A stretch of DNA of 64,000 nucleotides, taken from an uncultured delta proteobacterium. Lineage in GTDB: Bacteria; Desulfobacterota; Desulfobacteria; Desulfobacterales; JAHEIW01. Location of the stretch: NCBI GenBank assembly GCA_963706575.1, contig CAVPNL010000004.1, positions 552,476 to 616,475 of the forward strand, read 5' to 3'. The number at the start of each line of letters is the position of its first letter. The first letter of the stretch is position 1. The notes under the pieces are model-generated. The model was not told the origin of the DNA. It saw only the letters and a list, made by a program, of their open reading frames with translations, and ran no database searches. Made by a program: the position numbers and the translations under genes. Positions 30,363-62,343 of this stretch are shown here, in pieces.

Positions 30363-31277
30363 TCATTTACTCAATTTATTCTGTTTTATGTCAATTTCTC
30401 GCATCAGTTTGAGGACGGCCAGTTCTTTGGCTTTTGCTTCAACTTCCACGGTAATGTCCAGGTTCAGCCAGAATACCGGAAAGTCCTTGAGATTAATGTA
30501 ATCATGATGATTTCGGTGATTTCCATTCTCCCAGGGCTGTAAAGGACTCGAAATATGAAAAAGTGGCTCCCGGTTCCAAGTTTTCAGTACCTGATGAGTC
30601 GCGTCTTTAATGCTCAGACCGTCAGGCAGGCAGCGATGATGATGTAGGTCGTATACGAGAGGGATTTTCAATTTTTTGCAAATTGGCAGCAAATCTCGGG
30701 GCGTATACAGCCTATCATCGTTCTCCAGGGTAAGGCGACAGCGAATGCTTCGTGGTAGACTCCGAATTCCCCTAACCAGGCGTTGTAGGGCCTTATCCTT
30801 GTCTCCGTAAACACCACCGGCGTGAATATTGATCACATCGGCGTTGACCCATTTCGCAACTTCCGTCTGATATCTAAGATCGGCAATTGATCTGCGGGTA
30901 ACCTCTGGATTCGGCGATGATAATAGAATGAACTGATCGGGGTGGAAGCTCGTACGCATATCGTTTCTTCTGCAGAAAGTCCCGCATTTTTTGAATTTGT
31001 TCACGATTTCATTGGATTGGGGCAACGCTTCTATGGTGTATCCTAGTTTAGGATGTGTTTTAAGTGGCAAAATCTGGCTGTTGATCCGAAAGGCGTTAAT
31101 ACCATTACGCCGACAAAATTTAAGTGCCGCGAGAAGAGAATTTGCGTTGTGCAGGCAGATACCGGAAATATAATCCATCCGCTCGTTCGGAGATAGTTTG
31201 CTTAAGTACCTTGCTGTCGTGCGGCGGAACTTTATTGGCTCTTCACGAAAAATACAACACAGACCCCATCGAATCAT
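30363..31277 (-). CDS. uvsE: UV DNA damage endonuclease (UVDE)
   Basis: SFHPDQF, NIHAGGVYGDK, LENDD, YDLHHH, FHISS, HHDY, VEAKAKE motifs. Confidence 0.95.
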   Translation of the reverse strand: MIRWGLCCIFREEPIKFRRTTARYLSKLSPNERMDYISGICLHNANSLLAALKFCRRNGINAFRINSQILPLKTHPKLGYTIEALPQSNEIVNKFKKCGTFCRRNDMRTSFHPDQFILLSSPNPEVTRRSIADLRYQTEVAKWVNADVINIHAGGVYGDKDKALQRLVRGIRSLPRSIRCRLTLENDDRLYTPRDLLPICKKLKIPLVYDLHHHRCLPDGLSIKDATHQVLKTWNREPLFHISSPLQPWENGNHRNHHDYINLKDFPVFWLNLDITVEVEAKAKELAVLKLMREIDIKQNKLSK

Positions 31278-31728
31278 GACTGACCTTTCTTCAAAAAGAT
31301 AGCTGGTCTAATTTTAAGTATCTTTTGGACCAACATATCGAGCTAACTGACATTTTTTGATTGATACTTAGATTAACTCTTATTTGAGCTCCGTCAACCA
31401 ATCACGACCCATAGGGAAAGCGAGCTCATAGTGACCTATTGTTGGTGACGAGTCCCAGTCAAAGGTTTGATTTTTTTGCATTTGCGGAATAAACCAAACA
31501 AAAAGGGCAGCAATTGTAGACCGGCTATTTTGATTTTTTCGCCATCTGACTTGACTATGCAAAGCGAATTCTTAGAATTATTAATATTTTTGGGGTAGAG
31601 CTCACCCGTTAAGACGAAACATTGGAACATCTAAGGCCTGTGAATCCGGCTGAGCAGGATGTTGTTTGTGTTTTTGCGAGCCATATGTTAAGTGAGATAG
31701 AAACTAAACGGAAAAGAAAGGACTAGAC

Positions 31729-32031
31729 ATGCAAGTACAAGACTACTGCAAGGCGATGTTGGCTGAAGTTACAGCATGGAAAGAGAAGCTCGAGGCAATG
31801 AAAAAAGTCGCTGACAGCTATGGAACAGAACAGAAAGAAAAGGTACTTCCGCTTATCGGGCAGATAGAGCAGGAAGTCGTGAATGCGCAAATGCGTGTGC
31901 AGAAGCTCGAAACTGAATGCCCGTCTGACTGGTCGCCGATGAAAAATGAGCTCGATGATCTCTTCGGTACCATCGGAAGCAGTGTCGACCGTGCCTGGCG
32001 CGACCTGTCTCCTGGCGAAGTTGGTGGTTAG
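31729..32031 (+). CDS. Small coiled-coil hypothetical protein
   Basis: AAAGGA RBS; terminator follows. Confidence 0.8.
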   Translation: MQVQDYCKAMLAEVTAWKEKLEAMKKVADSYGTEQKEKVLPLIGQIEQEVVNAQMRVQKLETECPSDWSPMKNELDDLFGTIGSSVDRAWRDLSPGEVGG

Positions 32032-32041
32032 CAGAAATCCT

Positions 32042-32066
32042 GAGGAGAGGCTCCGGCCTCTCCTCT
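32042..32066 (+). terminator. Hairpin after the 31729 gene
   Basis: GAGGAGAGGC-TCCG-GCCTCTCCTC. Confidence 0.65.
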
Positions 32067-32631: not shown

Positions 32632-33573
32632 TCAGCCGTTTTGCAGCTTTCGCAAGTTGTCGATTGCTATTCTGAAGCTATCAACATCCTTTAAAATCTG
32701 CATTTCAGGTCCATCGAAAAAACCAGCCAGAGGCGATGCGCCCTGCCCACCAATGAAAATAGTAATATCATCGCCCAAATAACGCCTCAATTTCTTTATC
32801 TCTAGATTCAATTGATGGCTGTCCTCATAATAGGTGATGCTAAGCGCCACTGCTCGAGCATCCGCATATGCTACCGCCGCTGCAATTTCTTCTGCCGGCA
32901 AACTGGGACCGAAATACAAGGATTGCCAGTTGGATTCACATGCAATTAATGCAATTGCCAGCGCGCCGAGCTCATGCTGATGTCCTGCCGGGGTCGCAAT
33001 GACAATCTTCGGTGATGTCTCTGAAACTTCAGCTGAACGCAGCAGATTCCACAAAAAGGATCGGATGACCGTGGTTGTCATATGCTCATTGATGACTTTT
33101 AGCTCTCCGTGTTCCCATAACTCTCCGATTTTTTGGCATAGTGGTTCGATGACGGCCTTGATCAACTCCAATTTGCTCAGGTGTACCGCTGCTCGATCAA
33201 GGACAGATTCCAAACCTTTGGCATCAAAATTGAGGACGGTGGACAGCGATCGTTCGTAGAAATAGGTCGCATCCAATGAAGCGGATTCGCGAGCAGTAGA
33301 AACCTCGGAAGCAGCTGGCACATCCAACTTAACGAGCTCCATCAAATCCTCGGGAGATAGACCTGCAATCTGAGAAATGCTGTGGCCGATTTTTACACCT
33401 GTTTTCAGCATCTTAAGGCGCTCGATATCCTTTCCGCAAAACATCCGCCGGTTGGTTTCTGTTCTTTTGGGCACAACCGCCTGGTAGCGCTTCTCCCAAA
33501 TACGTATTACATGTGTCGAAAGACCGGTTTGCTGTGCAACATATCGAATTGGATATACATATTTAATTTTCAT
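32632..33573 (-). CDS. carH: CarH/LitR-type MerR regulator with a cobalamin-binding photosensor domain
   Basis: MerR HTH IRIWEKRY...RTETNRRMF; W-x9-EH (WEHGELKVINEH); B12 motif HQHELG ... YFGPSLP ... ALS ... IGG. Confidence 0.88.
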   Translation of the reverse strand: MKIKYVYPIRYVAQQTGLSTHVIRIWEKRYQAVVPKRTETNRRMFCGKDIERLKMLKTGVKIGHSISQIAGLSPEDLMELVKLDVPAASEVSTARESASLDATYFYERSLSTVLNFDAKGLESVLDRAAVHLSKLELIKAVIEPLCQKIGELWEHGELKVINEHMTTTVIRSFLWNLLRSAEVSETSPKIVIATPAGHQHELGALAIALIACESNWQSLYFGPSLPAEEIAAAVAYADARAVALSITYYEDSHQLNLEIKKLRRYLGDDITIFIGGQGASPLAGFFDGPEMQILKDVDSFRIAIDNLRKLQNG

Positions 33574-33579: not shown

Positions 33580-33608
33580 AATATAACATTTTTCTTTGAC
33601 ATTGTCAA
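33580..33608 (-). promoter_or_regulatory. Sigma-70 promoter of carH, probably leaderless
   Basis: Minus strand TTGACA (33608-33603), 17 bp, TATATT (33585-33580), then 6 nt to the ATG at 33573. Confidence 0.65.
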
Positions 33609-33634
33609 ATTTTTGTTTAACTTATGTCTAATTT
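33602..33634 (-). promoter_or_regulatory. CarH-type operator: three tandem 11-bp direct repeats
   Basis: Minus strand AAATTAGACAT-AAGTTAAACAA-AAATTTGACAA; each fits nAnnTnnACAn; overlaps the -35 element. Confidence 0.8.
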
Positions 33635-33701: not shown

Positions 33702-36200
33702 ATGACCAGAGATGCAAACTCAACAGCGGATAACGAAAAGATCTTTGAAGATCAAATGAATATTCCAGAAGAATTACCCATCTTGACCCTAAAGGAGCAG
33801 GTGGCATTTCCAACACTGAATATGACCTTAGCGATTCAGGCGGAGGCAACTTCACTGATTGAAAAGGCCATGAAAGGCGATCGAATTATCGGGGCTGTGG
33901 GTATCCGGAATCCAGTTGATGATCAGTCCATGACCAAACGGGTCTTTGAAACCGGCACTGTGATCCGGATTTTGTATGCGACCCGTGCATCCGACAACAC
34001 CACCCTGTTGGTTGCCAGGGGGTTAGAACGATTCCGTATCGACCAATGGCTCTCAGAAAAGCCTTACCTGAAGGCTCGCATTACACTGGCTCCTGAAATA
34101 ACTGAGACGGATATTGAGACGGATGCATTGTTTCGCAGCCTACGCGGCCTCTCGCAGGAAGTATTTTCCTTGATGCCCAACATACCCAAAGAGGCGGTCG
34201 AAGGGCTGGCAAGCATCCGAGACCCTTTGCATTTAGCCTATATCGCTGCCGCCCATGCCGATATCGATTTTCAAAAACGGCAAAATCTACTGGAAGAAGA
34301 CCGCCTCAAGGTAAAGCTGCGCGAATCAGTGACGATCTTGTCCCGTGAAAAAGAGGTGCTGGCGCTCGGGAAAAAAATCCAAACCGAAGCCCAAGACGAA
34401 ATGAACAAGTCACAGCGGGAATATTATTTGCGGCAGCAACTCGAGGCCATAAAAAAAGAGCTGGGAGAAACCAATGGCGAGAAATCCGAATCCGATGAAT
34501 ACCGACAACGCATCGAAAAATCAGACATGAGTGCCGAAGCGCGTAAAGAAGCCCTCAGAGAGCTGGACCGATTCGCCCAAATGACGCCCCAGTCGGCTGA
34601 GTACTCCCTGATCAAAACCTATCTGGACTGGTTACTGGATCTCCCTTGGAATCAACTAAGCGAGGATCAAGCGGATATTAAGGTCGCACGGGAAATCCTA
34701 GACGAGGATCACTATGGTCTGCAAGAGGTCAAGGATCGCCTTATTGAATACTTGGCGGTTCGAAATCTTCTGAAGATCCGAGGACCCCAGAAAAATAAGG
34801 AACCCAAGGCGCCATTTTCAACCGCCATGGGCGTCATATTGTGTTTTGCCGGACCGCCGGGTGTCGGTAAAACCAGCTTGGGACAGAGCATTGCGCGAGC
34901 CATGGGGCGTGAATTTACTCGCATGAGCCTTGGCGGAATACGGGACGAAGCTGAAATTCGAGGTCACCGTCGGACATATATCGGCGCAATGCCGGGACGA
35001 ATCATTCAGGCGATTAAGCGCGCCGGCACCCGCAATCCTGTCTTTATGCTGGATGAAGTCGACAAGATCGGTTCGGATTGGCGCGGCGACCCCAGTAGTG
35101 CCTTATTGGAGGTATTGGATCCTGCTCAAAACGCCACCTTTCGCGACCATTACCTGGATGTCGATTTTGACCTGAGCGATGTAATCTTTATTGCCACAGC
35201 CAATCAATTGGAAAGTATTCCGTTGGCATTGAGGGATCGTTTGGAAATCATTCAATTAGAAGGCTATACCGAGTTTGAAAAAACTCAGATCGCCAAACGA
35301 CACCTAATTCCCCGGCAATTGACCAGTCATGGCCTGATCGATAGCGAGATGACCTTTATGGACGAGGCGATCCGGAAAATTATTAGTAGCTACACCCGCG
35401 AAGCCGGAGTCCGTCAACTAGAAAGGCTTATCGGTTCCGTCTGCCGTAAATGCGTCGTCAACCTGACGACCCATGGTTGGTCGCATGTCATCGTTACTCC
35501 TGAGCAAGTGACAGAATACCTGAAGAAAGAGAAATTCGAAACCGAACATTCTGAAGTTATTGATATGCCGGGCGTTGCAACCGGTTTGGCGGTGACGGCA
35601 AACGGAGGTGACATTCTCTATATTGAGGCAACGCGAATGCACGGTGACGGGCAACTGCACTTAACCGGTCAACTCGGCGACGTCATGAAAGAAAGTGCTC
35701 AAATTGCCTACAGCTATATCCGTGCACACGCCGAAAAGTTGGCGATTGAGCCCCAAGCATTTGATAAACGGAAAGTTCATTTGCACGTGCCGGCCGGTGC
35801 AATTCCCAAAGATGGTCCTTCGGCGGGAATCGCCATGACCATGGCCCTGGCGAGCCTGTTCAGCAACCGTCCCGTGCGCAGTGATGTCGGGATGACCGGC
35901 GAAATCACGTTACGCGGGCGCATACTTCCGGTGGGTGGAATTAAGATGAAGGTTCTAGCGGCCCACCGCGCCGGGCTCACGACCGTGATTTTGCCCAAGC
36001 GTAATGCACGCGATCTGCACGACGTACCCGAAGAGATTCGTAATGCCATGCAATTTATACCGGTGGATCGGATCGATGAGGCCATCGATATCGGACTGAC
36101 ACGATCAGAAAACAGCGCGGGAGGCGATTATCGCCCCATTGATCGTAACCTGGATCCACTCAACGAAGAGATTTCAGCGTTAGATTCTTCCGTTAGGTAA
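33702..36200 (+). CDS. lon: ATP-dependent protease La
   Basis: GPPGVGKTS, RGHRRTYIGAMPG, DPSSALLEVLD, PKDGPSAG catalytic Ser. Confidence 0.97.
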   Translation: MTRDANSTADNEKIFEDQMNIPEELPILTLKEQVAFPTLNMTLAIQAEATSLIEKAMKGDRIIGAVGIRNPVDDQSMTKRVFETGTVIRILYATRASDNTTLLVARGLERFRIDQWLSEKPYLKARITLAPEITETDIETDALFRSLRGLSQEVFSLMPNIPKEAVEGLASIRDPLHLAYIAAAHADIDFQKRQNLLEEDRLKVKLRESVTILSREKEVLALGKKIQTEAQDEMNKSQREYYLRQQLEAIKKELGETNGEKSESDEYRQRIEKSDMSAEARKEALRELDRFAQMTPQSAEYSLIKTYLDWLLDLPWNQLSEDQADIKVAREILDEDHYGLQEVKDRLIEYLAVRNLLKIRGPQKNKEPKAPFSTAMGVILCFAGPPGVGKTSLGQSIARAMGREFTRMSLGGIRDEAEIRGHRRTYIGAMPGRIIQAIKRAGTRNPVFMLDEVDKIGSDWRGDPSSALLEVLDPAQNATFRDHYLDVDFDLSDVIFIATANQLESIPLALRDRLEIIQLEGYTEFEKTQIAKRHLIPRQLTSHGLIDSEMTFMDEAIRKIISSYTREAGVRQLERLIGSVCRKCVVNLTTHGWSHVIVTPEQVTEYLKKEKFETEHSEVIDMPGVATGLAVTANGGDILYIEATRMHGDGQLHLTGQLGDVMKESAQIAYSYIRAHAEKLAIEPQAFDKRKVHLHVPAGAIPKDGPSAGIAMTMALASLFSNRPVRSDVGMTGEITLRGRILPVGGIKMKVLAAHRAGLTTVILPKRNARDLHDVPEEIRNAMQFIPVDRIDEAIDIGLTRSENSAGGDYRPIDRNLDPLNEEISALDSSVR

Positions 36201-36291: not shown

Positions 36292-38157
36292 ATGCAGAAT
36301 CAAAATCGGCTAAGAACATTAATAATTATTGGTGGTATTTGGCTTGCCTTGCTGCTGTTTAATTTTCTATCGACGAATGCCGCCGTGAAGACAATACCAT
36401 ACAGCGAATTCTTACAACTCGCCAAAGAAGGAAAGGTTTCGGAAGTTGCGGTGTCAGACAATGTCATTCAGGGCAAAATGTTTACCGACAACTCCGACCC
36501 TGAACAGGGCGAATCCTTCCAAGCGGTACGGGTCGATGCGGAAATCTCTGATGTACTTGAGCAAAACGGCATTGAATATGCCGGAAAAATCCAGTCGAAT
36601 TTTCTTTCAAATCTTTTTTCATGGATTTTTCCAGTGCTCCTGTTTCTTGGCTTATGGTTTTTGATTATGCGACGATTTCAAAAACAGCAGGGGGGATTCA
36701 TGACCCTGGGTAAAAATAAGGCCAAAATCTACATGGAAAACGACGTCGAGGTCAGATTCGAAGACGCCGCGGGCGTTGATGAGGCCAAAGAGGAACTGGT
36801 GGAGGTTATCGATTTTATAAAAGAACCCGAGCGGTTTACACGCATCGGCGGACAGATTCCGCGCGGCATTTTGCTGGTCGGCCCTCCTGGCACCGGAAAA
36901 ACCCTGTTGGCAAAGGCAGTGGCTGGGGAAAGCGGAGTGCCTTTTTTCAGTTTAAGTGGCTCGGAGTTCGTCGAAATGTTTGTCGGTCTGGGCGCAGCAC
37001 GGGTAAGAGACTTATTTAAACAGGCCAAAGACAATGCGCCCTGCATCATTTTCATCGATGAACTGGACGCCCTGGGCAAAGCAAGGGGATTCGGCACCGT
37101 CGGCGGGCACGATGAACGCGAACAAACTTTAAATCAGCTTTTGGTGGAATTAGACGGATTTGATCCGAATATCGGTGTCATCTTGATGGCGGCGACCAAC
37201 CGCCCGGAGATCCTTGACCCCGCTTTGCTGAGGCCGGGTCGTTTTGATCGCCAGATACTGGTTGATCGACCCGACAAACAGGGCAGGAAAGAAATTTTAA
37301 AAGTTCATCTCAAAAAAATAACGGCCGCAGATGATCTGGACGTTGATACCCTGGCCGGTATGACTTCAGGCATGGTGGGAGCCGATCTTGCCAACCTGGT
37401 CAATGAGGCTGCCCTTTTATCCGTAAGAAGAAATAAGCCTGCAGTGGGTATGACCGAGTTTGAAGAGGCGGTTGAAAGGGTCGTTGCCGGTCTTGAGAAA
37501 AAGAATCGGTTGATCAACCCGAAAGAAAAAAAGATTGTCGCCTATCATGAACTCGGGCATGCGATTGTCGCCATGACACTGCCCGAAACCGATCCTGTCC
37601 AAAAGATCTCTATTATCCCGCGGGGTATTGCTGCCCTTGGCTATACCATGCAGGTGCCCACTGAAGATCGGTTCTTAATGCGCCGAACCGAGTTGTTGAA
37701 TCGAATTGCGACGCTATTGGGCGGACGGGCTGCTGAGGAAATTGTATTTGATGATATTTCCACCGGTGCACACAATGACCTCTCCAGAGCGACTGATATC
37801 GCGCGTAGCATGGTCAAGGAGTACGGCATGAGCCGTCAATTGGGGCAGGTCTATTTTTCCCGCAATAAGCAAAGCCCATTTCTCAATGCGAATCCGGACA
37901 GCGGTGGTGATTACAGTGAAATGACGGCTCACTTAATCGACAAAGAGATTCGTCAAATCATCGATGAGCAGTATGAAAGAGTTCTGGGCATATTAAAATC
38001 CAGGCGGGATATTTTGGATGAGGCTGCGAAGAAACTGCTGGAAAGTGAGGTCATAGAGGGCGAGGAGCTCAAAGCACTGGCGGAGACCGTGTCACAAAGC
38101 GGAATGCCAGAAGACGATTCCGGTATTTCACAAAGCAGTCATGCCCTGGCGGCTTAA
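36292..38157 (+). CDS. ftsH: ATP-dependent zinc metalloprotease FtsH
   Basis: Two TM segments, [31 protein letters not shown]. Confidence 0.97.
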
Positions 38158-39292: not shown

Positions 39293-39317
39293 GCCTCAAA
39301 TATTCAGGAGAACACCA

Positions 39318-49645: not shown

Positions 49646-49650
49646 GCGTC

Positions 49651-51827: not shown

Positions 51828-51876
51828 TTGAATTTCTCCTCAATGGTTTAGCGAAACATTCACGTTCTTATTTAGG

Positions 51877-52842: not shown

Positions 52843-52956
52843 TGAGCAAGCTTATCTGAAAATAGTGATTTCAGTTTACTCCAAATATCCCCGATGATCG
52901 CATTCACAACTTTTCTGTAATGGAATTTATTAAAAAATACAACAATCATATCATTG

Positions 52957-53673: not shown

Positions 53674-53763
53674 TCACCTTCCTCAAATTGTCGTTTTCTT
53701 TATTTGCAGTAAATTGGCATCTTTTATGATGCTAAATTCATTTTCTGTACAGAAAATTCAAAA

Positions 53764-54210: not shown

Positions 54211-54364
54211 AGCTATATTTCGCCCTTTTTTTGTATGAATTCTGTTTGCAAATTCTAATTTACTGCGCATTATTGTTTATACATTAACGCATTACTTTGA
54301 CTTGTAAAGATCTTTTCACTAACCGGAATCTGAATCAATAAGACCTTAGCACTTACGTAAGCCA

Positions 54365-55387
54365 ATGAAACCCATTACCATCGGTTTTTCTATTCATCGG
54401 TCGGAAGTTATCGACATAGCAGCTGATTTAATGCAGCGCCACGATGTCATTTTCCTGGAAGAACCGCCCGTAAACGGATTACAGGAAATGCTTCAAGGCG
54501 CCCTGTCAATTGACGACTATTTGTTGCCCGCCGAGGTCGAATACCCGGAATTTAGCCGCCGCATGTGTCGGCTGTTGCGTGAGCTTTATCAAGATGGCAA
54601 GAAAATCATTCAGGTGGAGCCGTTTTTAGAACATCTTCTGGCGATTCATACCTTTTTTTCACTAGGGCATCAGCCTAAAGAACTGCGGCCGGACTCGGTT
54701 CACCATCAGGTGTATCGGGCAGAGCGAGATGCCACCAAGGCCCTTTTGGATTACTACCAGATCGTGATGAACGGTTCATTTAAGGCCGCCATTCAGGCCA
54801 TCATCCGCTTTGCGCGCTTTGATGCGGCCCGATTTCGATTGCGTGACAGTCTGCGGGCCCAGGCCTTAGCCGCTGAACTAAATAAAGGGTCTTCTGTATT
54901 TATCGAAGCCGGTGTGATTCATCTTGCGTTGTATCATCTGCTGAAAAAAAGATTGCCGCAATCGCTTCAACTCAAACCCTTATTTATAACCCGTAAAGCG
55001 CTGAAAATCCTCGGCGCCAAAGGGCACCTGTTTGGCCCCGGTGATCAGTTGACGCTTACCTATATATTTCATCCCAAAACTCATGGAACCTTCAGAGCAG
55101 AGCTGCTTGCAGCGCGATCATTGATCTATTCGAAACTAATTGAAAAAGAAGAAGTCTCGGCCGGCTTAGAAACGTTTCCCCATATTCGCAACGAGCTCGC
55201 CTGTATTCGCACCGTCAAATTGCTGACTTTGGTGGATTGCGATCGACTATTTCCGTTGATCCGCTGCATTAAAACCGAACACGCCCGGCAGCTTGTAGAT
55301 GATTATTTGGTCCGCATTAAAAAGCTTCCCCGGCAAAGCTGGAAGCGTCAATCATTTAAATCGCAGACTGAAGGAGAATATATTTAA
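54365..55387 (+). CDS. Hypothetical protein (340 aa)
   Basis: Long ORF; IFLEEP and FIEAGVIH motifs; no family recognised with confidence. Confidence 0.75.
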   Translation: MKPITIGFSIHRSEVIDIAADLMQRHDVIFLEEPPVNGLQEMLQGALSIDDYLLPAEVEYPEFSRRMCRLLRELYQDGKKIIQVEPFLEHLLAIHTFFSLGHQPKELRPDSVHHQVYRAERDATKALLDYYQIVMNGSFKAAIQAIIRFARFDAARFRLRDSLRAQALAAELNKGSSVFIEAGVIHLALYHLLKKRLPQSLQLKPLFITRKALKILGAKGHLFGPGDQLTLTYIFHPKTHGTFRAELLAARSLIYSKLIEKEEVSAGLETFPHIRNELACIRTVKLLTLVDCDRLFPLIRCIKTEHARQLVDDYLVRIKKLPRQSWKRQSFKSQTEGEYI

Positions 55388-55388
55388 A

Positions 55389-55796
55389 ATGAAACCCATA
55401 CCCTTTAATTCGCAAAAAGATTTAGCGCCTGTCGTTTTTGACACCCAAACCTGCCGTCTGGCAAACGAATTAAAACAACTGGGAATACCCTGGCAACCGC
55501 ACGTGGGATGTTTCGTATGGGACCCGCATGAGCATATAAAGGCCGAATCTCCATTTCCCTATAGAATTTACTTTATTCTGAGCCTGCCGAGGTTTCTTGA
55601 TATATTCGGCAGTATTGAAGCGATTGCTGAAAAACTGGTATGGCTGCCGACTTGGCATCAGGCCCGGCTGCTGTGCCAACAACTGGGTGTGCCCGATCAA
55701 GTCGTGGCAAATATTTGGCATAGCCAAACGACACCATCAGCGGGTGAAGAATTGTGACAAATCTATGAGCTTCTCATAGGTGTGCTAAAAGAATAA
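55389..55796 (+). CDS. Hypothetical protein with an in-frame TGA at 55755 twelve codons before TAA
   Basis: GAAGGAG RBS; ...GEEL-TGA-QIYELLIGVLKE-TAA. Confidence 0.6.
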
Positions 55797-55834
55797 GCCT
55801 CATTTTGAAAGCGGTGGGTTAGGAGAAAAGCGTC

Positions 55835-56212
55835 ATGAAAACAGCGAAACCGGATAGCCGAAACCGTTCCTTTTGCGAGGCCATCATCGCAAAAAGACAG
55901 GGAGATATTTCTACCTTGCCAAATAGGTTGGCCCGACACGTATCGCACGTTTACGGTGATTTCATTGCGGCCTATTTGAACGTTTTGAGACAGAAAGAAG
56001 GCAAACCGCGGGATTGGTTTCCTGAATCACTCTCTATTGATCCGGCATTGGTAGATGAAATGCGGCATTTTTTTTCAGATTATCAGCATATCACGAAAGC
56101 CTTTCTTACCCTGAACAAACAGATGGATGGACTGCACGAAATCGACAAAGACAAACAGCCAAATTTGTATGAGTACACGGTGGCCAGCATTTTAAGCCAT
56201 GAACGCCGGTAG
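55835..56212 (+). CDS. Hypothetical protein
   Basis: ORF track; AGGAG RBS. Confidence 0.7.
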   Translation: MKTAKPDSRNRSFCEAIIAKRQGDISTLPNRLARHVSHVYGDFIAAYLNVLRQKEGKPRDWFPESLSIDPALVDEMRHFFSDYQHITKAFLTLNKQMDGLHEIDKDKQPNLYEYTVASILSHERR

Positions 56213-56243
56213 CGGCTCAGCTGCAGTTTGCCCGGAGGTTTAG

Positions 56244-57509
56244 ATGAAATTAACAGATGTTGACGTTGTCGTTGTCGGTGCCGGCCTTGCCGGATTGTCA
56301 TGTGCAAGACACCTGATGAACCGCAGCGTGTCTTTTATCATTCTTGAGGCCGATGACCGAATTGGCGGCCGCCTGAAAACCGATGTGCTGGACGGGTTTT
56401 TATTGAACCACGGATTCCAGGTATTGCAGACCGCATACCCCGAGGCCCGTCGCCAATTAGACTACCATCGCCTCGACTTGAAACCATTTGCCCCGGGAGC
56501 GATTATCCGGGTGTCAGGTAAATTTAAGCGAGTCTCTGACCCCAGGCGTCGTCCGAGAGACATTTGGAGCTCCCTGACGGCGCCGGTTGGCACTTTTGCT
56601 GACCGTTTGCGGATGATTCGAATGGCATCCAGCGCCCGGCGGGGAAGTGTTTCCAGTGTGTTTCAGGGTCCGGATATGACGACGCTCGAATTCCTGCAAT
56701 CCCAGGGGATTTCAGAAAAAATGATCGAGCGGTTTTTTAAGCCGTTTTTCGGGGGCGTCTGCCTTGATCCGGCGATTCGAGCATCGAGCAATGTATTCAA
56801 ATACGTTCTGCGTGTCTTTGCCGAGGGCGATGTTGCTTTGCCCGGCCAGGGGATGGCGGCCATCGCCAGCCAGCTCGCCGAAGATTTACCAGAGGCGACG
56901 ATCAAGACCGGAACCCGGGTCGAAGCGATCCATCCGGGCGGTGCGGTTTTATCATCGGGACAAACACTCAAGTGCCGCGCAGTGGTGTTGGCGACCGATG
57001 GTCCGGAGACGATGCGTTTGCTGGGAAAACCCGCATCGATGGTCTCCCAGGGCGAATTATGTCTTTATTTTGCAGCCCCAAAAGCACCGATCAATGCGCC
57101 CTATCTCATCCTAAATGGCCAAGGAACCGGTGTGATCAACAGCCTGACCGTTCCCAGCGTCGTTGCAACCTCATATGCGCCGACCGGCCAAGAGCTGATT
57201 TCCGTGGTGCTGATCGGTCATTTGGAGTTAGATGACAGGACCGCTCAATTGGAGGTGCGAAAAGAACTAACCGAATGGTTTGGAAACGGGGTCGAAGAAT
57301 GGCGCCATTTGAAAACTTACCGCATCCAACATGCGTTGCCCGCCCAGCCGCCGCCGATGCCGGATCCAAACATTCCATCAAAACCGGTGAAGCCGGGTAT
57401 TTATGTTTGTGGCGAGTACCAAAGCGTTCCGGGTATTCAGTGGGCCCTTCTTTCCGGCCGACATGCCGCCGAAGCGGTAATCAAGGAACTGGCAGAAATA
57501 CCTGGATAA
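56244..57509 (+). CDS. FAD-dependent oxidoreductase (amine oxidase / phytoene desaturase-like)
   Basis: VVGAGLAG, GGRLKTD..DGFLLNHGFQV, IQWALLSG. Confidence 0.9.
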   Translation: MKLTDVDVVVVGAGLAGLSCARHLMNRSVSFIILEADDRIGGRLKTDVLDGFLLNHGFQVLQTAYPEARRQLDYHRLDLKPFAPGAIIRVSGKFKRVSDPRRRPRDIWSSLTAPVGTFADRLRMIRMASSARRGSVSSVFQGPDMTTLEFLQSQGISEKMIERFFKPFFGGVCLDPAIRASSNVFKYVLRVFAEGDVALPGQGMAAIASQLAEDLPEATIKTGTRVEAIHPGGAVLSSGQTLKCRAVVLATDGPETMRLLGKPASMVSQGELCLYFAAPKAPINAPYLILNGQGTGVINSLTVPSVVATSYAPTGQELISVVLIGHLELDDRTAQLEVRKELTEWFGNGVEEWRHLKTYRIQHALPAQPPPMPDPNIPSKPVKPGIYVCGEYQSVPGIQWALLSGRHAAEAVIKELAEIPG

Positions 57510-57549: not shown

Positions 57550-58552
57550 TCACGTGTGCAAAATATCCGGCAATGGCTCAACGAGTCCATCGATCCAGCG
57601 AATTGGAAATTTTTCAATGCCGTAGGATGCCCCCATTAGCGCTCCAAGTACCGCCCCGCGCGCGGCGTTGTCACCGCCGAGATTGGTATTGGCGATGAGC
57701 GCATTTTCCGGATCATCGTGGTATTTTAATGCCAGATAAACAACTGCCGGAATTGAGTCCTCAACATAACAGGCCGTGCTGAAGCGCGGACCCACCACCC
57801 AGTCGTCAGGATCATCCAGCCATTTGATAAAAGGATGTCCAAGCAAGGGATTTTGCTGTTTTGCAATTTCCTCAACGATGGCTTCTTTCAACCGGACGCC
57901 GTTGAGCACCTTCAGCAAAATATCGATCAACAATGATCCGGCAGTTTTCATTTTGGAACCGGGTGGGTAGCAGGTGGGTCAAGGCGGCCTCGCGGGCTTG
58001 GTCGGGCCGATTGAAATAAAAAACAACGATGGGAACAATTCCGAGCAGACCGCCGATATGCTTTTCTTCGACACCGCATCTGCGTGGCGGCATGTCCCTG
58101 GCATAATTTGCGAAGAAATTGCGATGGCACTCCTCGATGTAGGTGTCTTGGTGGTTGCCCGGGATTGTCATGAAGGCGATGTATCTTCTTAGAAAATCGT
58201 CTGCGTTGTAGGTGCCGTTTTGGTTTATCGAGTCAATGAGCAGCCGGCAAATTTTAACATTTAAGGTGTTCTCACCTGCTTTGAGAAACTGGTGATAATG
58301 AATGCCCTTTTGACCCCAGTAGGGGATTTGATCGTGCAGAATTTCGCCTTTTGCGTTTGACGCTTTGTAGCTGGAGCGCCACAGAATGCTGTCCGGATGC
58401 GGATTGCGCGGTGCCAAGTAGTCTGTCACCCGGCCATAATCTCGATTGAGTGCCTGGCGGTTATAATACCAGTGAACTGGCATCGCCAGTGCATCGCCGA
58501 TGCACAAACCGTAAAGCGCTCCGCGTGATATAGTATTGATGGCATTCGTCAT
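57550..58552 (-). pseudogene. ADP-ribosylglycohydrolase family gene, frameshifted near 57960-57975
   Basis: N-part has GDALAMPVHWYY; C-part in another frame has NLGGDNAARGAVLGAL. Confidence 0.8.
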
Positions 58553-58867: not shown

Positions 58868-60598
58868 TTACATTTTGACCCTCTTTAGGTCATCAACCCA
58901 ACTGTTTGCAATCCGGGCCGTTGACTGCACAATTCCATGTGCCATACTGGCGTCGATGATCTGGCCTCTGGTCATCGCGCCGACAGCATAAATCGAGTTG
59001 GATTTAACTGGTCTTTTGTTAGACACCTTCCGAATAACATGGTGGGTCTCGGGATCTATCCACACGCTTCCGGTTTTATATGTATGTAATTTCGTTTTCG
59101 ATTGATTGACGAATCGGTTGCCGAGGCCATTTTCTGGTTGAACGGGTTGGGTTTCTTCATTTTGGACGATGCCCCGTTCAAGCAGGTTCTTCGTTAAAGG
59201 GGAGGGATCTATCTGGATGGACTTTGCCTGACCGCGTGCATTAACCACATACCGGTAAGCATCTCTTTTTGTCTCACCGTTAGAATCCTGATAGATAAAT
59301 TCCCAGACGTCTTTTGTGTCATTTTTGACAAATTGATTATTTCTTCCCAGTTTAAATACCTCAACCAGCCCGGACTTCATGAGCGCCAGCATTTTTTCAG
59401 CATTGATGGCTGGCTGGGTTGCTGCATGTGTAAAAAATATCGAAGTGTATGTTTTATCGAAACGCTTCCGATCTTCCAGCGATAGTCTCAGATAAATCTC
59501 TCGGACCATATCAAAGGACTGATGAAGGACGGTTTGCCACACGAGTTCGCCATCCGGCCCATCTCCACGTCTTGCGTCTTCCAAATATTGCTGTAACAGC
59601 TCTGCGGGCGGTCTCGTCGGGCTTACAACTGCTTTCCAATTAATTGCGTGTCCGTATGCCGCTTCCAGCTCTGAATTTAATAACTGAAATACGGCTTCGA
59701 GGTTTAAATATCCTTGGTTTTCGGCGATCAAACTTTCCAATTTTTTGCGCGTCAGAAACATGTTGCGGTATTTACCCATCTTGCCTCTGACTTTCGGCAG
59801 CAGTCCTCTTCTGGAGTAGAGCGCAAATTTTCTTGGATTTGCGGGCGGGACATACACTAGTTCATTAGAATTATCACGAATAAAATTGCCATTTGAAGTG
59901 AGGGTTAAAACAACCTCTATGGCACTTAAACTCGTTCCAATTACGGCGACTTTCTCGCCCTCTGGAATTTTTTCAAGTAATTGTCTCGCCGGCCACGGTG
60001 AGGGAAAGTAGTTATGCTGTTCTTTTTTTTCAAACCAATGCCCGGTTGCAAGCAAAATACGGTCGGCGAGACATGAAAAAGTTGACCCCGATAACAGTTG
60101 CTTCACGGTGAGATGGATCTTATCATCGCTTCGCTTTTCTAAATCGATAACCTCAGATCCCGAAAAAAGTTCCACCCCAACACCCAGCGCTTGTGCTTTT
60201 TGATGGGCCTCTTGAAATTTTGCTTTAAGGTATTCGCCCATGATTGCGCGTGGGTAATGATTGCAGCCTTCATAGCTAAAAGATGTATCATCTATCCATT
60301 GATAACGTTCTTTGAGCCGATCATGATTTATGGTCGCCCAATCTTGGAAATCCTCAGGATGGCCCACCAGGATGCCCATGTCCTTGGCACACATGTTCGT
60401 AATATGAAAGGGCATGACGTTTCTATCACAATGGGGAAAGCCGGGTCCGAAGATGTCTTGCTTTTCAAAAATCTGAATTTTAATCTCAGAAGGATTTAAC
60501 AAGTTCAGATCAATTTCTTGTCGCACCTTCTCTACAAACATGTGAAGCATAGCGGTTCCCGTCAATCCACCGCCAACAATTGCAAAAGTAAAGCTCAT
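58868..60598 (-). CDS. FAD/NAD(P)-binding protein (YdhS-like)
   Basis: AIVGGGLTG, YPRAIMGEYL, LATGH, GTSLSAIE, SRRGLLP, VNARG. Confidence 0.85.
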   Translation of the reverse strand: MSFTFAIVGGGLTGTAMLHMFVEKVRQEIDLNLLNPSEIKIQIFEKQDIFGPGFPHCDRNVMPFHITNMCAKDMGILVGHPEDFQDWATINHDRLKERYQWIDDTSFSYEGCNHYPRAIMGEYLKAKFQEAHQKAQALGVGVELFSGSEVIDLEKRSDDKIHLTVKQLLSGSTFSCLADRILLATGHWFEKKEQHNYFPSPWPARQLLEKIPEGEKVAVIGTSLSAIEVVLTLTSNGNFIRDNSNELVYVPPANPRKFALYSRRGLLPKVRGKMGKYRNMFLTRKKLESLIAENQGYLNLEAVFQLLNSELEAAYGHAINWKAVVSPTRPPAELLQQYLEDARRGDGPDGELVWQTVLHQSFDMVREIYLRLSLEDRKRFDKTYTSIFFTHAATQPAINAEKMLALMKSGLVEVFKLGRNNQFVKNDTKDVWEFIYQDSNGETKRDAYRYVVNARGQAKSIQIDPSPLTKNLLERGIVQNEETQPVQPENGLGNRFVNQSKTKLHTYKTGSVWIDPETHHVIRKVSNKRPVKSNSIYAVGAMTRGQIIDASMAHGIVQSTARIANSWVDDLKRVKM

Positions 60599-60844
60599 CT
60601 AAACCTTAGTCCTGACTTGTGTCCTTTGGTATCGCATACATATGATTAAATCCCGACATTATAGATACAGAGAGGACCTTTAAGTTGTAACACCATGAGG
60701 AAAAGTGAACTATATTCGTTATAAGACTGTATTTCATGAAAGGCATATTAAGACAACTCATTTTCATTGAATTTATTCATTCGTTGTGTAATCCATAATT
60801 AAATTTATCTTGAATGCGCACCAATCAGAAGGATAGTTGCTTTT

Positions 60845-61654
60845 ATGAAACTACGCTACGATCCTTACCAGGTATTTCGGTTTAGCAAAACGCCTGTGGG
60901 TCTTTATGCCCGACAAAAGTGGCTTGGAGAAGCCGGAACGCCTCAGTGGAAAATTGACTTTAAGGAGACGGTAGTTGCACTTTTGGCGGACCAATTGCCT
61001 GATGGATCATGGCGTAGGGCCACGGTCGAAACCATTCATCGTCTGTTCGGGCTTCATCTGACAATGCGATCTTCCACTGCACAGATAGATACCGCCCTGA
61101 CTTGGATTTTAGATAAGATCGCTTTTCAGGCAGAAGGGATTCATATCCATGCCGAAGATATATCCACTATCCCCAATCTAAAGGGGCTTCCGTTTATCCC
61201 GAGTCGACCAGATATGTTTTTGACAGGCGCGGCGCTATTTCTATCCACTATATTTGGCCGCCAAAGTTATCCAGATGTGCTGGCCTTGTATAAGTGGCTG
61301 AGTTCAGAAGGGATAAAAAACCAAGGCCGTTGGTTTGATGAGGCATCTTCCCACAATATTTTCCGCGCCATGGTCGTGCATCCCATATTTGCTAAAAAAA
61401 AGGCCACAATACTGGCGGCTAAGCATCTTGCTGAGTTGCAGACAGATACGGGTTTTTGGAAGAATGATTTACCGTTTTATCAAACCCTTAATGCGCTGGC
61501 GCATTTGGATTTGCATCAGGTAGAAACCCAACTTGAAAAGGCCTTTGAACGGTTATTTGAAAATCAAAATAGCGACGGCACCTGGAGCAAGTCTGAGCCT
61601 GAGTGGAATACGTTTTTAGCAATTCATGCACTAAAAAATAAAGGGCTTTTGTGA
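60845..61654 (+). CDS. Prenyltransferase/squalene-cyclase repeat-like protein
   Basis: QW-like repeats QLPDGSW, QTDTGFW, QNSDGTW. Confidence 0.7.
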   Translation: MKLRYDPYQVFRFSKTPVGLYARQKWLGEAGTPQWKIDFKETVVALLADQLPDGSWRRATVETIHRLFGLHLTMRSSTAQIDTALTWILDKIAFQAEGIHIHAEDISTIPNLKGLPFIPSRPDMFLTGAALFLSTIFGRQSYPDVLALYKWLSSEGIKNQGRWFDEASSHNIFRAMVVHPIFAKKKATILAAKHLAELQTDTGFWKNDLPFYQTLNALAHLDLHQVETQLEKAFERLFENQNSDGTWSKSEPEWNTFLAIHALKNKGLL

Positions 61655-61704
61655 TAAGGCTAATACATTGGAAAGTGATAGAGAACGGATTAGAATGCCC
61701 ATTT

Positions 61705-62343
61705 TTAATATTTTTCTATAGGAATCAGCACTTCGTTGCGACGCAGAAACCAGGGCATGAATGGTGGGTCATAGCGTGCCCAGACCGGTGCGCCCTTTTT
61801 GGTCAAAACCCGTTTTCGAATGTATTCTTCCAACAGGGCTTTGTTTTCCTCGTACCCTTCTTCACTCCAGGTCCCTGAATACTTAACAGCGACCATTAGG
61901 CGGCCGGATTCTTCTGTCAACCTTACCCTTGTGTCATTGGGTTCCGGAAGCGTTTCCAGAGTATATTCTGCCGGCATGAGAAAAGTGATTCGCCATCGAT
62001 TATCTTTCTTCTCCTGTTTGACCGGCGCGGTCATGGCAATTTTTTTCGAACCGGTTTCCTGGCTGATAGGCGCCGTCATGGAGATTGACTGCTTTTTGGT
62101 GTTCTCCCCGGAGATGTAGGCATAGAGGCGGCGAAAACCCTCATTGCCTGCATTTTCTAGATCGCCTTCGACAAAGGTTTCAGCCACGATCTGGGGATCA
62201 TACTGCCTGATTTCAAAACCATCTTCTTTCTCCAAAACTGTATATTTTGCTTTCTCAATGGCCATGGCCGATTTAACCACCAGTAATGATGAAACGCCTA
62301 AAAGCGCAAATCCGGCTAATCCAATAATTTTGAATGTTCGCAT
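61705..62343 (-). CDS. SOUL heme-binding protein
   Basis: FEIRQY, GFRRLYAYISGEN, I.MTAP (duplicated), YDPP...LRRNEVLIP. Confidence 0.93.
   Translation of the reverse strand: MRTFKIIGLAGFALLGVSSLLVVKSAMAIEKAKYTVLEKEDGFEIRQYDPQIVAETFVEGDLENAGNEGFRRLYAYISGENTKKQSISMTAPISQETGSKKIAMTAPVKQEKKDNRWRITFLMPAEYTLETLPEPNDTRVRLTEESGRLMVAVKYSGTWSEEGYEENKALLEEYIRKRVLTKKGAPVWARYDPPFMPWFLRRNEVLIPIEKY

Follow-up and report, generated by a model that had tools for sequence, protein, structure and literature searches.

Gene content of the island

The window analysed here is a stretch of 64,000 nucleotides (bases 552476–616475 of a 641-kb contig) from a 5.67-Mb genome bin of 25 contigs, with a completeness of 91.8% and an estimated contamination of 6.4%. 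It contains a gene island around carH, which encodes a predicted B12-dependent photoreceptor and lies head to head with genes for a Lon and an FtsH protease (lon2 and ftsH2); a gene for a sigma-32 factor, rpoH2, belongs to the same island. A sequence-only reading of this DNA had proposed that CarH drives a self-contained sigma-32/protease relay together with lipid antioxidants. We found a predicted CarH operator between carH and lon2, conserved repeats of the same type at the rpoH2 promoter, and a conserved promoter without CarH-type sites at the lipid operon. Pfam and NCBIfam profile scans of 38 open reading frames (ORFs) between 27978 and 63646 recovered, close to where that reading had put them, 22 of the 22 gene families it had named. 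Absent from its list were the genes for a small TPR protein, DUF2062, an alpha/beta hydrolase, an ADP-ribosylglycohydrolase and a second short-chain dehydrogenase/reductase (SDR), as well as four ORFs without a Pfam family above cut-off. The central genes and sites are the following.

32632–33573, minus strand: carH, MerR plus B12 regulator (MerR_1, B12-binding_2 and B12-binding domains)
33580–33608, minus strand: predicted carH promoter, TTGACA-N17-TATATT, 6 nt before the ATG (11 of 12 consensus matches, the best of the scan)
33603–33633, minus strand: predicted CarH operator, three tandem 11-bp direct repeats (TAGACA / TAAACA / TTGACA; exact match to ANNTNNACA x3)
33702–36200, plus strand: lon2 (TIGR00763, 912 bits; cut-off 608)
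36292–38157, plus strand: ftsH2 (TIGR01241, 809 bits; cut-off 600)
38225–38725, plus strand: gene for the small TPR protein, between ftsH2 and dksA2 (TPR_1 and related families)
38930–39292, plus strand: dksA2, DksA/TraR family (DksA_N and zf-dskA_traR above cut-off)
42823–43299, minus strand: DUF2062 gene (Pfam)
43321–44025, minus strand: gene for an M50 small site-2-type metalloprotease (Pfam)
44058–45059, minus strand: rpoH2, sigma-32 (NF005143, 264 bits; cut-off 241)
45263–45320, minus strand: predicted rpoH2 promoter, TTGACA-N16-TATTTT, followed at once by two 11-bp repeats (TAGACA-N5-TAGACA) with degenerate flanking repeats

Judged by strand and spacing, uvdE (minus) and carH (minus) are units of their own, and lon2, ftsH2 and the TPR gene are followed on the plus strand by dksA2 and the genes for a lipocalin, a chalcone-isomerase-like protein, a GPH transporter and DUF1295. 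The rpoH2, M50 and DUF2062 genes form a further minus-strand unit, and the hydrolase gene stands alone on the plus strand.

The regulator is a class I CarH/LitR protein

CarH (313 aa) contains a MerR helix-turn-helix domain (PF13411, E 1e-14) and both B12 domains. Full-length carH was found in a single copy in the genome using tblastn. In an alignment of 11 orthologs, the recognition helix IRIWEKRY (RxWEKRY) carried invariant R24, W26, E27 and R29, and the Wx9EH motif was intact (W153-x9-E163-H164), with all three residues invariant. The B12 motif read H198-Q-H200-E-L-G203, x41, S245-I-T247, x27, G275-G276 with correct spacings; G203, S245, T247, G275 and G276 were invariant and H200 was nearly so (Tyr in the relative G027). 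In the account of Myxococcales CarH proteins in PMC9304148, RxWE(R/K)RY is the DNA-binding motif, the B12 motif (classically D/ExHx2G-x41-SxT/V-x22-27-GG) provides the lower ligand, and Wx9EH contacts the adenosyl group, being kept in CarH and lost in CarA. These photoreceptor motifs confirmed the earlier naming of a CarH-type regulator.

The best family match was to NF052513 (TransRegCarH equivalog; E 1e-32), at 113 bits against a cut-off of 400. As this model is narrow, we filed the protein under CarH/LitR class I and not as the NF052513 equivalog. By every sequence feature tested, except for an optional His residue discussed below, the regulator belongs to this class.

A unique triple repeat, the predicted CarH operator, separates carH from lon2

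The gap between carH and lon2 spans 128 bp and, on the carH strand, reads TAGACAtaagtTAAACAaaaatTTGACA. With up to two mismatches allowed, the pattern ANNTNNACA x3 matched the window once, and 8 of 100 shuffled sequences had one match or more; with up to one mismatch, it matched the whole 5.67-Mb genome once, and the reversed control had no match. The published CarH repeat is nnnnTnnACAn, with three reported in tandem for Thermus, and in the accounts of Thermus and Myxococcus the −35 element TTGACA lies inside one repeat. The carH −35 TTGACA of the island likewise lies inside operator repeat 3. With only 6 nt between the end of this promoter and the ATG, carH probably has a leaderless mRNA. 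Any lon2 promoter has to fall within the same 128 bp; the repeats cover the weak candidate found, which has a palindrome in common with the carH −35.

We found carH divergent from lon2 in 14 other genomes, with ftsH2 often next where the contig allowed. Eleven of these belong to the genus or family and one to another family of the order; the others are an unplaced metagenome-assembled genome (MAG) and the closed genome of Desulfosarcina alkanivorans PL12. The strict triple repeat was present in 13 of the 14, and the remaining genome (G027) had two repeats in the same promoter layout. In D. alkanivorans PL12, the gap is 101 bp and contains TAAACA-N5-TAAACA-N5-TTGACA-N17-TATCAT-N6-ATG; its Lon and FtsH are 59% and 68% identical to those of the island. 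One relative (G005) kept the operator, but there the divergent partner of carH is dksA2–lipocalin–chalcone isomerase. The linkage of carH to lon2–ftsH2 is thus head to head across a unique, conserved operator, in keeping with the sequence-only reading.

Lon was also surveyed across 60 relatives. Lon2 orthologs, 61–95% identical, were present in 16 of the 60, and all other matches among those listed were at most 53% identical, forming three housekeeping Lon groups; 46 weaker matches lay outside the list. In 12 of the 16 Lon2 genomes, carH or its operator was beside the Lon2 gene or a fragment of it; in G015, a Lon2 fragment (78%) and a carH-adjacent lon fragment were on different contigs. FtsH2 followed Lon2 in 10 other genomes at 68–94% identity (including G007, G010, G011, G013, G015, G016, G027 and D. 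alkanivorans). Lon2 and FtsH2 were set apart by these identity gaps rather than by trees.

We also examined what adjoins carH in the 80 best-matching CarH loci, drawn from all phyla. A lon gene was beside carH in 11, all labelled Desulfobacterales or deltaproteobacterial. Genes for UfaD-like, DUF1365 and cyclopropane-fatty-acid (CFA)-type proteins were beside carH in 15, of which 13 were from Latescibacterota, Gemmatimonadota or Acidobacteriota and two were MAGs with other labels; desaturase genes were also present in these 15 loci. A distant sigma-70-family gene adjoined carH in 11 of the 80, mostly in Verrucomicrobiota. These counts indicate that the tie of CarH to furan-fatty-acid-type genes is widespread, and that its tie to Lon and FtsH is specific to the order.

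Small TPR genes also recurred near CarH genes. Several relatives carry a second CarH paralog (41–44% identical) beside such a gene (L047–L049, L053, L078, L099 and L126), and in G062 a gene for a 174-aa TPR protein is closely preceded by a triple-repeat site with TTGACA (L189, 16310–16948). Small TPR proteins therefore seem, from gene neighbourhood, to be recurrent CarH companions.

A second repeat site follows the rpoH2 promoter

Between rpoH2 and the hydrolase gene, TAGACA-N5-TAGACA occupies 45274–45290, adjoining a promoter that points at rpoH2. Tandem Repeats Finder (TRF) reported an 11-bp period at 45271–45291 with 100% matches. The strict two-repeat pattern T[AT][AG]ACA-N5-T[AT][AG]ACA had 11 matches in the genome and 13 in the reversed control; three of the 11 were in the window, two making up the carH operator and the third being the rpoH2 site.

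The site was conserved. Promoter and repeats preceded 9 of the 12 rpoH2-type loci, strictly in seven and with one degenerate repeat in G018 and G012; the relatives concerned were G014, G018, G005, G010, G007, G015, G016 and G012. The shared layout consists of a 16-nt spacer, a TAnnnT −10 element and then TAGACA-type repeats in 11-bp phase, with the first repeat degenerate in G018 and G012 and a total of three repeats in G010. Among the loci without the site, G008 had none in 900 nt, only 213 nt were present in G021, and G001 had a different site. Upstream of the 21 other rpoH loci, a strict repeat pair was found in none. Of the 33 rpoH loci examined, 9 had an M50 gene after an rpoH2-type gene, and no RpoH1-clade locus was among these; the translated M50 protein of the island contains HELGH and NMIPAFPMDG.

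RpoH2 scored 263.7 with NF005143 (cut-off 241) and 270 with the proteobacterial equivalog model TIGR02392 (cut-off 323). Sigma-32 factors carry an RpoH box, Q(R/K)(K/R)LFFNLR, between regions 2 and 3, and QRKLFFRLK was invariant in both the RpoH1 and the RpoH2 sequences. A tree of 33 RpoH sequences resolved two clades with 100/100 support. The RpoH1 clade (18 sequences) is slow-evolving and includes the other copy of this genome, on contig C3, together with D. alkanivorans and three other Desulfobacterales genomes (G063–G065). The RpoH2 clade (15 sequences) is faster-evolving, consists wholly of sequences from this genus and includes the island copy. No second RpoH was found in D. alkanivorans or in the three other Desulfobacterales genomes reached through their CarH loci. 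The sigma-32 step is a later, genus-level addition. Regions 2.4 and 4.2 of RpoH2 are close to those of RpoH1, so RpoH2 probably reads ordinary sigma-32 promoters, and a private promoter class is not evident.

Some features of these loci vary. In G010 (L182, 2445–2756) and G005 (L185), a small ORF separates rpoH2 from its repeat-bearing promoter, and there is none at this position in the window; the G010 ORF encodes 103 aa with EF-hand domains (Pfam). A third RpoH2-type subclade (G015:C80, G007:C26 and G008:C88; L177–L181) lacks an M50 gene, and a gene for a stand-alone B12-binding-domain protein of about 215 aa is found some 5 kb away. The alpha/beta hydrolase gene is kept beside rpoH2 in G010, G014 and G018; in the window, its translation probably begins farther downstream than the listed TTG.

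The proteases, DksA and RpoH have further paralogs in the genome

To count paralogs, the island proteins were compared with their own genome by tblastn. There were four lon loci, the other three 44–50% identical to Lon2, and three ftsH loci, the other two 48–58% identical to FtsH2. Three loci for dksA were found (the other two 40–44% identical to DksA2) and two for rpoH (the other copy, on C3, 68% identical to RpoH2). Separate copies of all four genes thus exist, as tblastn, the identity gaps and the RpoH tree agree.

Lon2 has the domains LON_substr_bdg, AAA, Lon_lid and Lon_C and proved to be a LonA protein; FtsH2 has FtsH_ext, AAA and M41 domains, as expected of FtsH. DksA proteins are marked by a coiled-coil N domain, a C4 zinc finger and a DxxDxA tip. 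DksA2 matched PF21157 and PF01258 above cut-off, and its translation contains a DPVDRA tip and CxxC-N17-CxxC; it fell below the equivalog cut-offs of TIGR02420 (104 vs 115.5) and NF033459 (90 vs 105).

The lipid operon has a conserved promoter of its own

The remaining genes from uvdE to the lipid operon are listed below.

30363–31277, minus strand: uvdE, UvdE UV damage endonuclease (PF03851, E 7e-60)
39261–39881, plus strand: lipocalin gene (Pfam)
40030–40608, plus strand: Chalcone_3, chalcone-isomerase-like gene (Pfam)
40605–42008, plus strand: GPH/MFS_2 transporter gene (Pfam)
42020–42826, plus strand: DUF1295 gene (Pfam)
45309–46406, plus strand: alpha/beta hydrolase gene (Hydrolase_4)
46429–47780, minus strand: DUF2177, DUF1499 and Usp (USP) genes (Pfam)
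48359–49645, minus strand: CMAS, CFA-type methylase gene, cfa (E 3e-81)
49651–50424, minus strand: DUF1365 gene, UfaO-like (E 7e-83)
50583–51827, minus strand: amine-oxidase-type flavoprotein gene, UfaD-like (Amino_oxidase/NAD_binding_8)
51877–52842, minus strand: FA_desaturase gene (Pfam)
52957–53673, minus strand: SDR gene (Pfam)
53764–54270, minus strand: DUF4174 gene (Pfam)
54271–54364, no strand assigned: conserved divergent promoter region between the DUF4174 gene and a 340-aa ORF (CTTTACAA..TAnnnT..ATG)

The four genes at 39261–42826 (lipocalin, chalcone-isomerase-like, GPH and DUF1295) share the strand of lon2 and are possibly reached by read-through from it.

The minus-strand unit runs through the DUF4174, SDR, desaturase, UfaD-like, DUF1365 and cfa genes and then the USP, DUF1499 and DUF2177 genes, the last three in the same order in G014 and G005. 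Its first six genes (48359–54270) resemble a furan-fatty-acid operon, in which the DUF1365, flavoprotein and CMAS genes are adjacent and were likened to UfaO, UfaD and UfaM by family descriptions only. Desaturases of the di-iron family use O2. UfaD is described as an NAD/FAD-binding protein and UfaO as a DUF1365 protein, with a 402-aa gene and a 245-aa gene in the same operon, and UfaD and UfaO are reported to require O2 (PMC7380195). A perfect-phase 20-bp tandem repeat (2 copies, 95% matches) lies at 48056–48096, in the 578-bp gap between cfa and USP.

Upstream of the DUF4174 gene, CTTTACAA is followed after about 16 nt by TAnnnT and about 8–10 nt later by ATG. This arrangement was kept in 18 of 21 loci, and the motif was unique in the genome. 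Because the start codon follows the −10 so closely, the DUF4174 mRNA would be of leaderless type. Part of the genus has a palindrome, CAATGCC..GGCATTG, between the −35 and the −10, and its conservation suggests a separate regulator for this promoter. The gap (54271–54364) contained no CarH repeat pair and no sigma-32 consensus. The proposal that CarH or RpoH2 drives the ufa-like operon found no support, the gap having no CarH-type site and a conserved promoter lacking the TTG needed by RpoH-family sigma factors; the idea that it is a CarH or RpoH site was itself dropped when footprinting gave a conserved sigma-70-like promoter instead. Across loci L195–L213, the gap was among the best conserved non-coding stretches seen.

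Genome-wide scans with CTTGAA..CC[ACT][CT]AT and TTGAAA..CCCCAT gave one match in a second, paralogous cluster on contig C14, on the wrong strand. A looser pattern, CTTGAA..[CG][CT]TTAT, had 25 matches (9 in the reversed control), of which several fell in a repeated element and not one could be tied to known heat-shock genes, and was discarded. A count of exact dyads over 22 upstream regions of the two clusters yielded AT-rich pairs only and was likewise abandoned. The regions upstream of the housekeeping lon, ftsH and rpoH genes contained nothing convincing, and no RpoH or RpoH2 motif for the genome could be defined from these scans.

The second cluster (C14:142000–156000; L001) contains DUF2062, GPH, DUF1295 and uvdE genes and then cfa, DUF1365, UfaD-like and desaturase genes, at 46–77% identity to the island; the ufa-like set is 61–75% and uvdE 77% identical. 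Its neighbours encode a 300-aa LuxR/GerE regulator (whose N-terminal 240 aa are unassigned), a methyltransferase and a lipocalin–DUF1499 fusion, and response regulators with a sigma-54 activator lie upstream.

The right-hand block is a separable unit

The island continues to the right with the following genes.

54365–57509, plus strand: three lineage-specific ORFs (340, 152 and 125 aa) and a second amine-oxidase-type flavoprotein gene
56244–57509, plus strand: the second amine-oxidase-type flavoprotein gene (Pfam)
57550–58552, minus strand: ADP-ribosylglycohydrolase gene, split over two frames
58868–60598, minus strand: FAD/NAD(P)-binding flavoprotein gene (Pfam)
within 58868–63646, plus strand: 269-aa ORF, between the FAD/NAD(P)-binding gene and SOUL
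61705–62343, minus strand: SOUL haem-binding protein gene (Pfam)
62930–63646, plus strand: second SDR gene (SDR2)

By strand and spacing, the three ORFs and the flavoprotein gene (plus), the ADP-ribosylglycohydrolase and FAD/NAD-binding genes (minus), the 269-aa ORF (plus), SOUL (minus) and SDR2 (plus) form successive units. The 340-, 152- and 125-aa ORFs had no Pfam match at E values up to 5, and in the protein Atlas they fell only into hypothetical clusters of Thermodesulfobacteriota. The 269-aa ORF had only sub-threshold squalene-cyclase-repeat matches. The ADP-ribosylglycohydrolase gene consists of overlapping ORFs of 226 aa (N-terminal) and 133 aa (C-terminal), where relatives have one ORF of about 340 aa; the split is a frameshift or an assembly error. 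These three ORFs, the flavoprotein gene and the ADP-ribosylglycohydrolase gene recurred beside carH in several Desulfobacterales genomes.

In the closed 7.0-Mb genome G023 of a second genus (g2; C1:5762900–5774100, L218 and L219), the block from the 340-aa ORF to SDR2 was present at 80–98% identity, in the order SDR2, SOUL, 269-aa ORF, FAD/NAD-binding, ADP-ribosylglycohydrolase, flavoprotein and the 125-, 152- and 340-aa ORFs. No other genes of the cluster were present in the 120 kb read around it, and the genome had no CarH match better than E 4e-6; the block is a separable unit. For the genes of 58868–63646, the identity was 83–98%. Because the identity of the block exceeds that of most neighbouring shared genes (54–89%), transfer or strong constraint is possible.

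Beyond the window, a gene for a 516-aa PF04244 photolyase-related protein (DPRP; G000:C4:616606–619345, L240 607–3346) begins 131 bases past the end. It is followed by genes for a CobA/BtuR corrinoid adenosyltransferase, which makes the B12 form needed by CarH, an EF-hand protein, GNAT, a CI-type repressor and RecQ. A PF00875 photolyase is encoded on contig C18. The earlier statement that no photolyase was seen in the window is thus true of the window only. One SQS_PSY homolog was found, on contig C15.

The host is a sulfate-reducing member of the Desulfobacterales

The genome encodes dsrA (608 bits; cut-off 393) with an adjoining dsrB-like gene. The nearest public CarH loci are labelled as Desulfobacterales or deltaproteobacterial MAGs, one being that of D. 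alkanivorans PL12, which we take to be a strict anaerobe. From dsrAB and these nearest loci, the description of the host as a sulfate-reducer-like anaerobe holds, and its taxonomy points to a Desulfobacterales sulfate reducer. The genome also has two haem-copper-oxidase-family genes despite dsrAB. ChrR, reported missing from the window by the sequence-only reading, was not found anywhere in this 91.8% complete genome with TIGR02451, which did detect it in the control genome, Caulobacter.

The B12-binding domain (PF02310) had 33 matches genome-wide, and three CobA/BtuR-type adenosyltransferases were found, one of them 2.3 kb beyond the end of the window; these numbers mark a heavy corrinoid user. 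A search for a PduO-type adenosyltransferase (PF01923) found none in the genome. In an Rfam scan of the window no family reached threshold, which indicates that it contains no cobalamin riboswitch.

Metatranscriptome contigs from two libraries of one study matched lon2, ftsH2, M50 and rpoH2 with 0–6 differences per 280–511 nt. As DNA carry-over is possible, these matches offer weak support and at most place the genes in RNA libraries. The two RNA-labelled libraries had no contig over 45341–46674 and 48009–52000 (hydrolase, cfa, DUF1365 and UfaD-like genes) and are uninformative on expression there; these regions were covered by runs that are possibly DNA, and all of the data were contigs. RNA-labelled runs sharing 26–48% of the sampled words of the query are labelled marine sediment or marine metagenome, and the DNA runs with the largest word shares carry no label.

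A proposed light-response island centred on proteostasis

We favour the reading that this is a light-response island of sulfate-reducing Desulfobacterales, built around a class I CarH repressor of the adenosylcobalamin (AdoCbl) type that is wired directly to lon2–ftsH2 and to rpoH2; we put its probability at roughly 0.6. The direct CarH regulon would consist of lon2–ftsH2–TPR, perhaps on to DUF1295, together with rpoH2–M50–DUF2062. Of the relay proposed earlier, the link from CarH to the proteases and sigma-32 is backed at the DNA level, by the operator at lon2–ftsH2 and the conserved repeats at the rpoH2 promoter, and the link to the lipid genes is not.

In the dark, AdoCbl-CarH would bind both sites and repress carH, lon2–ftsH2–TPR and rpoH2–M50–DUF2062. 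The first site would cover the carH −35 and whatever promoter drives lon2–ftsH2–TPR, and the lon2 transcript may extend into the dksA2, lipocalin, chalcone-isomerase-like, GPH and DUF1295 genes. The second would act from directly behind the −10 of the sigma-70 promoter of rpoH2–M50–DUF2062. Light would break the Co–C bond and release CarH; a need for oxygen in CarH disassembly, as in Thermus, would suit an anaerobe harmed by light mainly when oxygen is present. The cell would then produce additional proteases, one soluble (Lon) and one in the membrane (FtsH), as well as DksA, a modulator of RNA polymerase, and another sigma-32, the last raising heat-shock-type genes more widely, and the whole would amount to a burst of protein quality control against photo-oxidative damage. 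If FtsH2 or Lon2 degraded RpoH2, which is pure conjecture, a pulse would result. The neighbours appear to fit the same stress. Among them are a UV endonuclease, a desaturase, SOUL, flavoproteins and an O2-dependent, furan-fatty-acid-like lipid pathway, with genes for a photolyase-related protein and a corrinoid adenosyltransferase just beyond the window. The island is a set of modules that come together repeatedly, of which sequence evidence ties only two to CarH.

Several points weigh against this reading. In the sensor, position 1 of the B12 motif is His and not Asp or Glu, and the residue after the Trp of Wx9EH is Glu (W153-E154-H155), with E, K or R in the orthologs and never His; as this His is lacking throughout the clade, the photoresponse may differ or be weaker. 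At the first site, the lon2-facing promoter candidate (TTGACA-N16-TAACTT) is weak and fell below the scan threshold. The gaps of 204 nt before dksA2 and 148 nt before the chalcone-isomerase-like gene may hold internal promoters and may end the lon2 transcript. The second site has only two perfect repeats, a length at which CarH operators have been reported to function, and the RpoH2 subclade of G007a, G015a and G008a lacks it. Lon2-like genes occur in G053, G056 and G023, where the stretch read contained neither carH nor its operator; in G023, no CarH match was better than E 4e-6, and no left-hand cluster genes were found in 120 kb around the block. On the output side, the two sigma-32 consensus scans found no such promoter anywhere in the window, the DUF4174 promoter (TTTACA-N16-TAnnnT) is sigma-70-like and without TTG, and the ufa-like cluster on C14 adjoins a LuxR-type regulator and not CarH. 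The bin has an estimated contamination of 6.4%, and the CarH wiring is deduced from sequence only.

A more complete relay, in which CarH replaces RpoE–ChrR, RpoH2 transcribes the whole 32-kb island and FtsH2 and Lon2 degrade RpoH2 in a self-limiting pulse, seems to us unlikely. It would account for the CarH sites at both the protease operon and rpoH2, and FtsH is known to degrade sigma-32 in Escherichia coli. It would also fit with the failure to find ChrR in the 91.8% complete genome, with the adjacency of rpoH2, DUF2177, DUF1499, USP, cfa and DUF1365 in G014 and G005, and with the 15 of 80 loci from other phyla in which carH lies beside desaturase, UfaD-like, UfaO-like and cfa genes; in Rhodobacter sphaeroides, singlet oxygen is reported to act via RpoE to RpoHII. 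However, no CTTGAA..CCCCAT-type site was found in the window, and the ufa operon promoter (TTTACA) lacks the TTG described as essential for both Rhodobacter RpoH paralogs (PMC3441632). The closeness of regions 2.4 and 4.2 in RpoH2 and RpoH1 gives no sign of a private promoter class. D. alkanivorans, in which no second RpoH was found, nevertheless keeps carH–lon–ftsH, and the sigma step is a later addition at genus level.

A looser arrangement is still less probable. Here, CarH would regulate itself and perhaps lon2–ftsH2, the rpoH2 repeats would bind another factor or none, and everything else would be regulated separately. The solitary right-hand block in G023 agrees with this, as do the shuffled gene order around carH between genomes, the LuxR-type neighbour of the C14 cluster and the palindrome in the DUF4174 promoter, which points to another regulator. 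Yet the rpoH2 repeats share the TAGACA core and 11-bp phase of the carH operator, stay directly behind the −10 at 9 of the 12 loci and are not found upstream of RpoH1-clade loci, and 3 of the 11 strict matches in the genome are in the window. The recurrence of the lineage-specific ORFs, the flavoprotein gene and the ADP-ribosylglycohydrolase gene beside carH in several Desulfobacterales also speaks against this arrangement.

We consider it very improbable that the regulator senses cobalamin supply or redox state and not light, as might be argued for a host in dark sediments. In Thermus CarH, the His after the Trp becomes the upper ligand and is required for light-driven monomer formation, and full disassembly also requires oxygen (PMC10442372, PMC11796333); the H132A mutant cannot monomerise (PMC11796333). 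The E, K or R at this position and an anaerobic host with 33 B12-domain genes would be in line with such a sensor. This His is, however, described as common and not universal in CarH, and Wx9EH, the mark of photoreceptor CarH, is invariant here. CtMerR, a CarH homolog with Arg after the Trp, still changed structure without monomerising when crystals were lit without oxygen (PMC11796333). The UV endonuclease, photolyase-related protein and O2-dependent lipid enzymes nearby, and the marine sediment and marine metagenome labels of the RNA-labelled runs with 26–48% word share, also favour light.

That the island is foreign or the contig chimeric, an artefact hinted at by a 25-contig bin with 6.4% estimated contamination and by island proteins up to 98% similar to those of another genus, has next to no probability, and we rejected it: the window lies inside a 641-kb contig, GC content in 2-kb windows is 0.43–0.53 over the cluster span and 0.43–0.54 over the full window, other genes shared by both genera are also 80–89% identical, and the same modules recur in many genomes of the genus and in the closed genome of an isolate.

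The light-response reading leads to a broader and more tentative idea, namely that a B12 photoreceptor might serve anaerobic sulfate reducers as an alarm for light and oxygen, whose first output is proteostasis (Lon, FtsH, DksA and, in one genus, a private sigma-32). If true, this would make it the first CarH regulon built around proteases, and a guild regarded as living in darkness would turn out to sense light. Studies of CarH, and its use in optogenetics, have so far dealt with a switch for carotenoid genes in aerobes; an operator for CarH, conserved ahead of a spare Lon/FtsH pair and a sigma-32, would widen the known outputs of B12 photoreception and couple the sensing of light to controlled protein degradation and the heat-shock system. 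Strictly anaerobic sulfate reducers, central players in the sulfur and carbon cycles of the sea, would have a means to detect exposure to light and oxygen, and a cell would be prepared for photo-oxidative damage to proteins and membranes once light and oxygen reach its layer of sediment or mat. As cultured D. alkanivorans PL12 carries the carH–lon–ftsH unit, the idea is open to ordinary genetics and biochemistry. The grouping of DUF4174, DUF2177, DUF1499, DUF2062, DUF1295, the three lineage-specific ORFs and the small TPR protein with a photoreceptor also provides functional leads.

Comparison with known systems

A literature search found no link of CarH or LitR to lon, ftsH, rpoH, sulfate reducers or Desulfobacterota in the sources it covered, among which supplements (such as a Pseudomonas list of 19 light-induced genes and a CarH census) and most subscription journals were not included. 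The closest relatives of the system are the class I CarH/LitR proteins of Thermus thermophilus, Bacillus megaterium and the Myxococcales, which have the same domain order and the motifs RxWE(R/K)RY, Wx9EH and B12. Tandem 11-bp TnnACA repeats, a −35 TTGACA inside one of them and a divergent or autoregulated carH are shared as well. Their outputs are carotenoid (crt) genes, whereas here AAA+ proteases and paralogs of DksA and sigma-32 are the predicted outputs. The sulfate-reducing host, the missing His after the Trp and the leaderless-type carH promoter are further differences.

Streptomyces LitR–LitS is likewise a two-step system in which a B12 photoreceptor gates a sigma factor gene (PMC11519972). 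LitS is an extracytoplasmic function (ECF) sigma factor, whereas the island has an RpoH paralog with an RpoH box, and the proteases are predicted to be direct targets as well.

The RpoE–ChrR/RpoHII system of R. sphaeroides also has a second RpoH, described there as dedicated to photo-oxidative stress. Its RSP1091–1087 genes (ufaD, ufaO and others) and ufaM have counterparts in the UfaD-like, DUF1365 UfaO-like, CFA-type methylase and SDR genes of the island, likewise in one operon and matched by description only. In contrast to R. sphaeroides, no ChrR was found here, the top regulator is predicted to be a photoreceptor rather than an ECF sigma released by singlet oxygen, and a promoter of RpoH type was not seen upstream of the ufa-like genes.

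In Pseudomonas, the light-induced genes reported under LitR-family control include phrB, cryB, ufaM, folE, an SDR gene, an FAD-dependent oxidoreductase gene and genes of unknown function (PMC9758184). The class II LitR proteins of P. putida and P. mendocina (PplR/PmlR) are thus associated with similar kinds of genes, and a DPRP/CryB-type gene lies at the edge of the island. Class II LitR lacks the B12 Rossmann domain, is LOV-dependent and belongs to aerobic hosts, and the account in PMC9758184 names neither proteases nor sigma-32 among its genes. Set beside these systems, the sensor and operator logic of the island is familiar, and its outputs (proteases, DksA and sigma-32) and the guild of its host are new.

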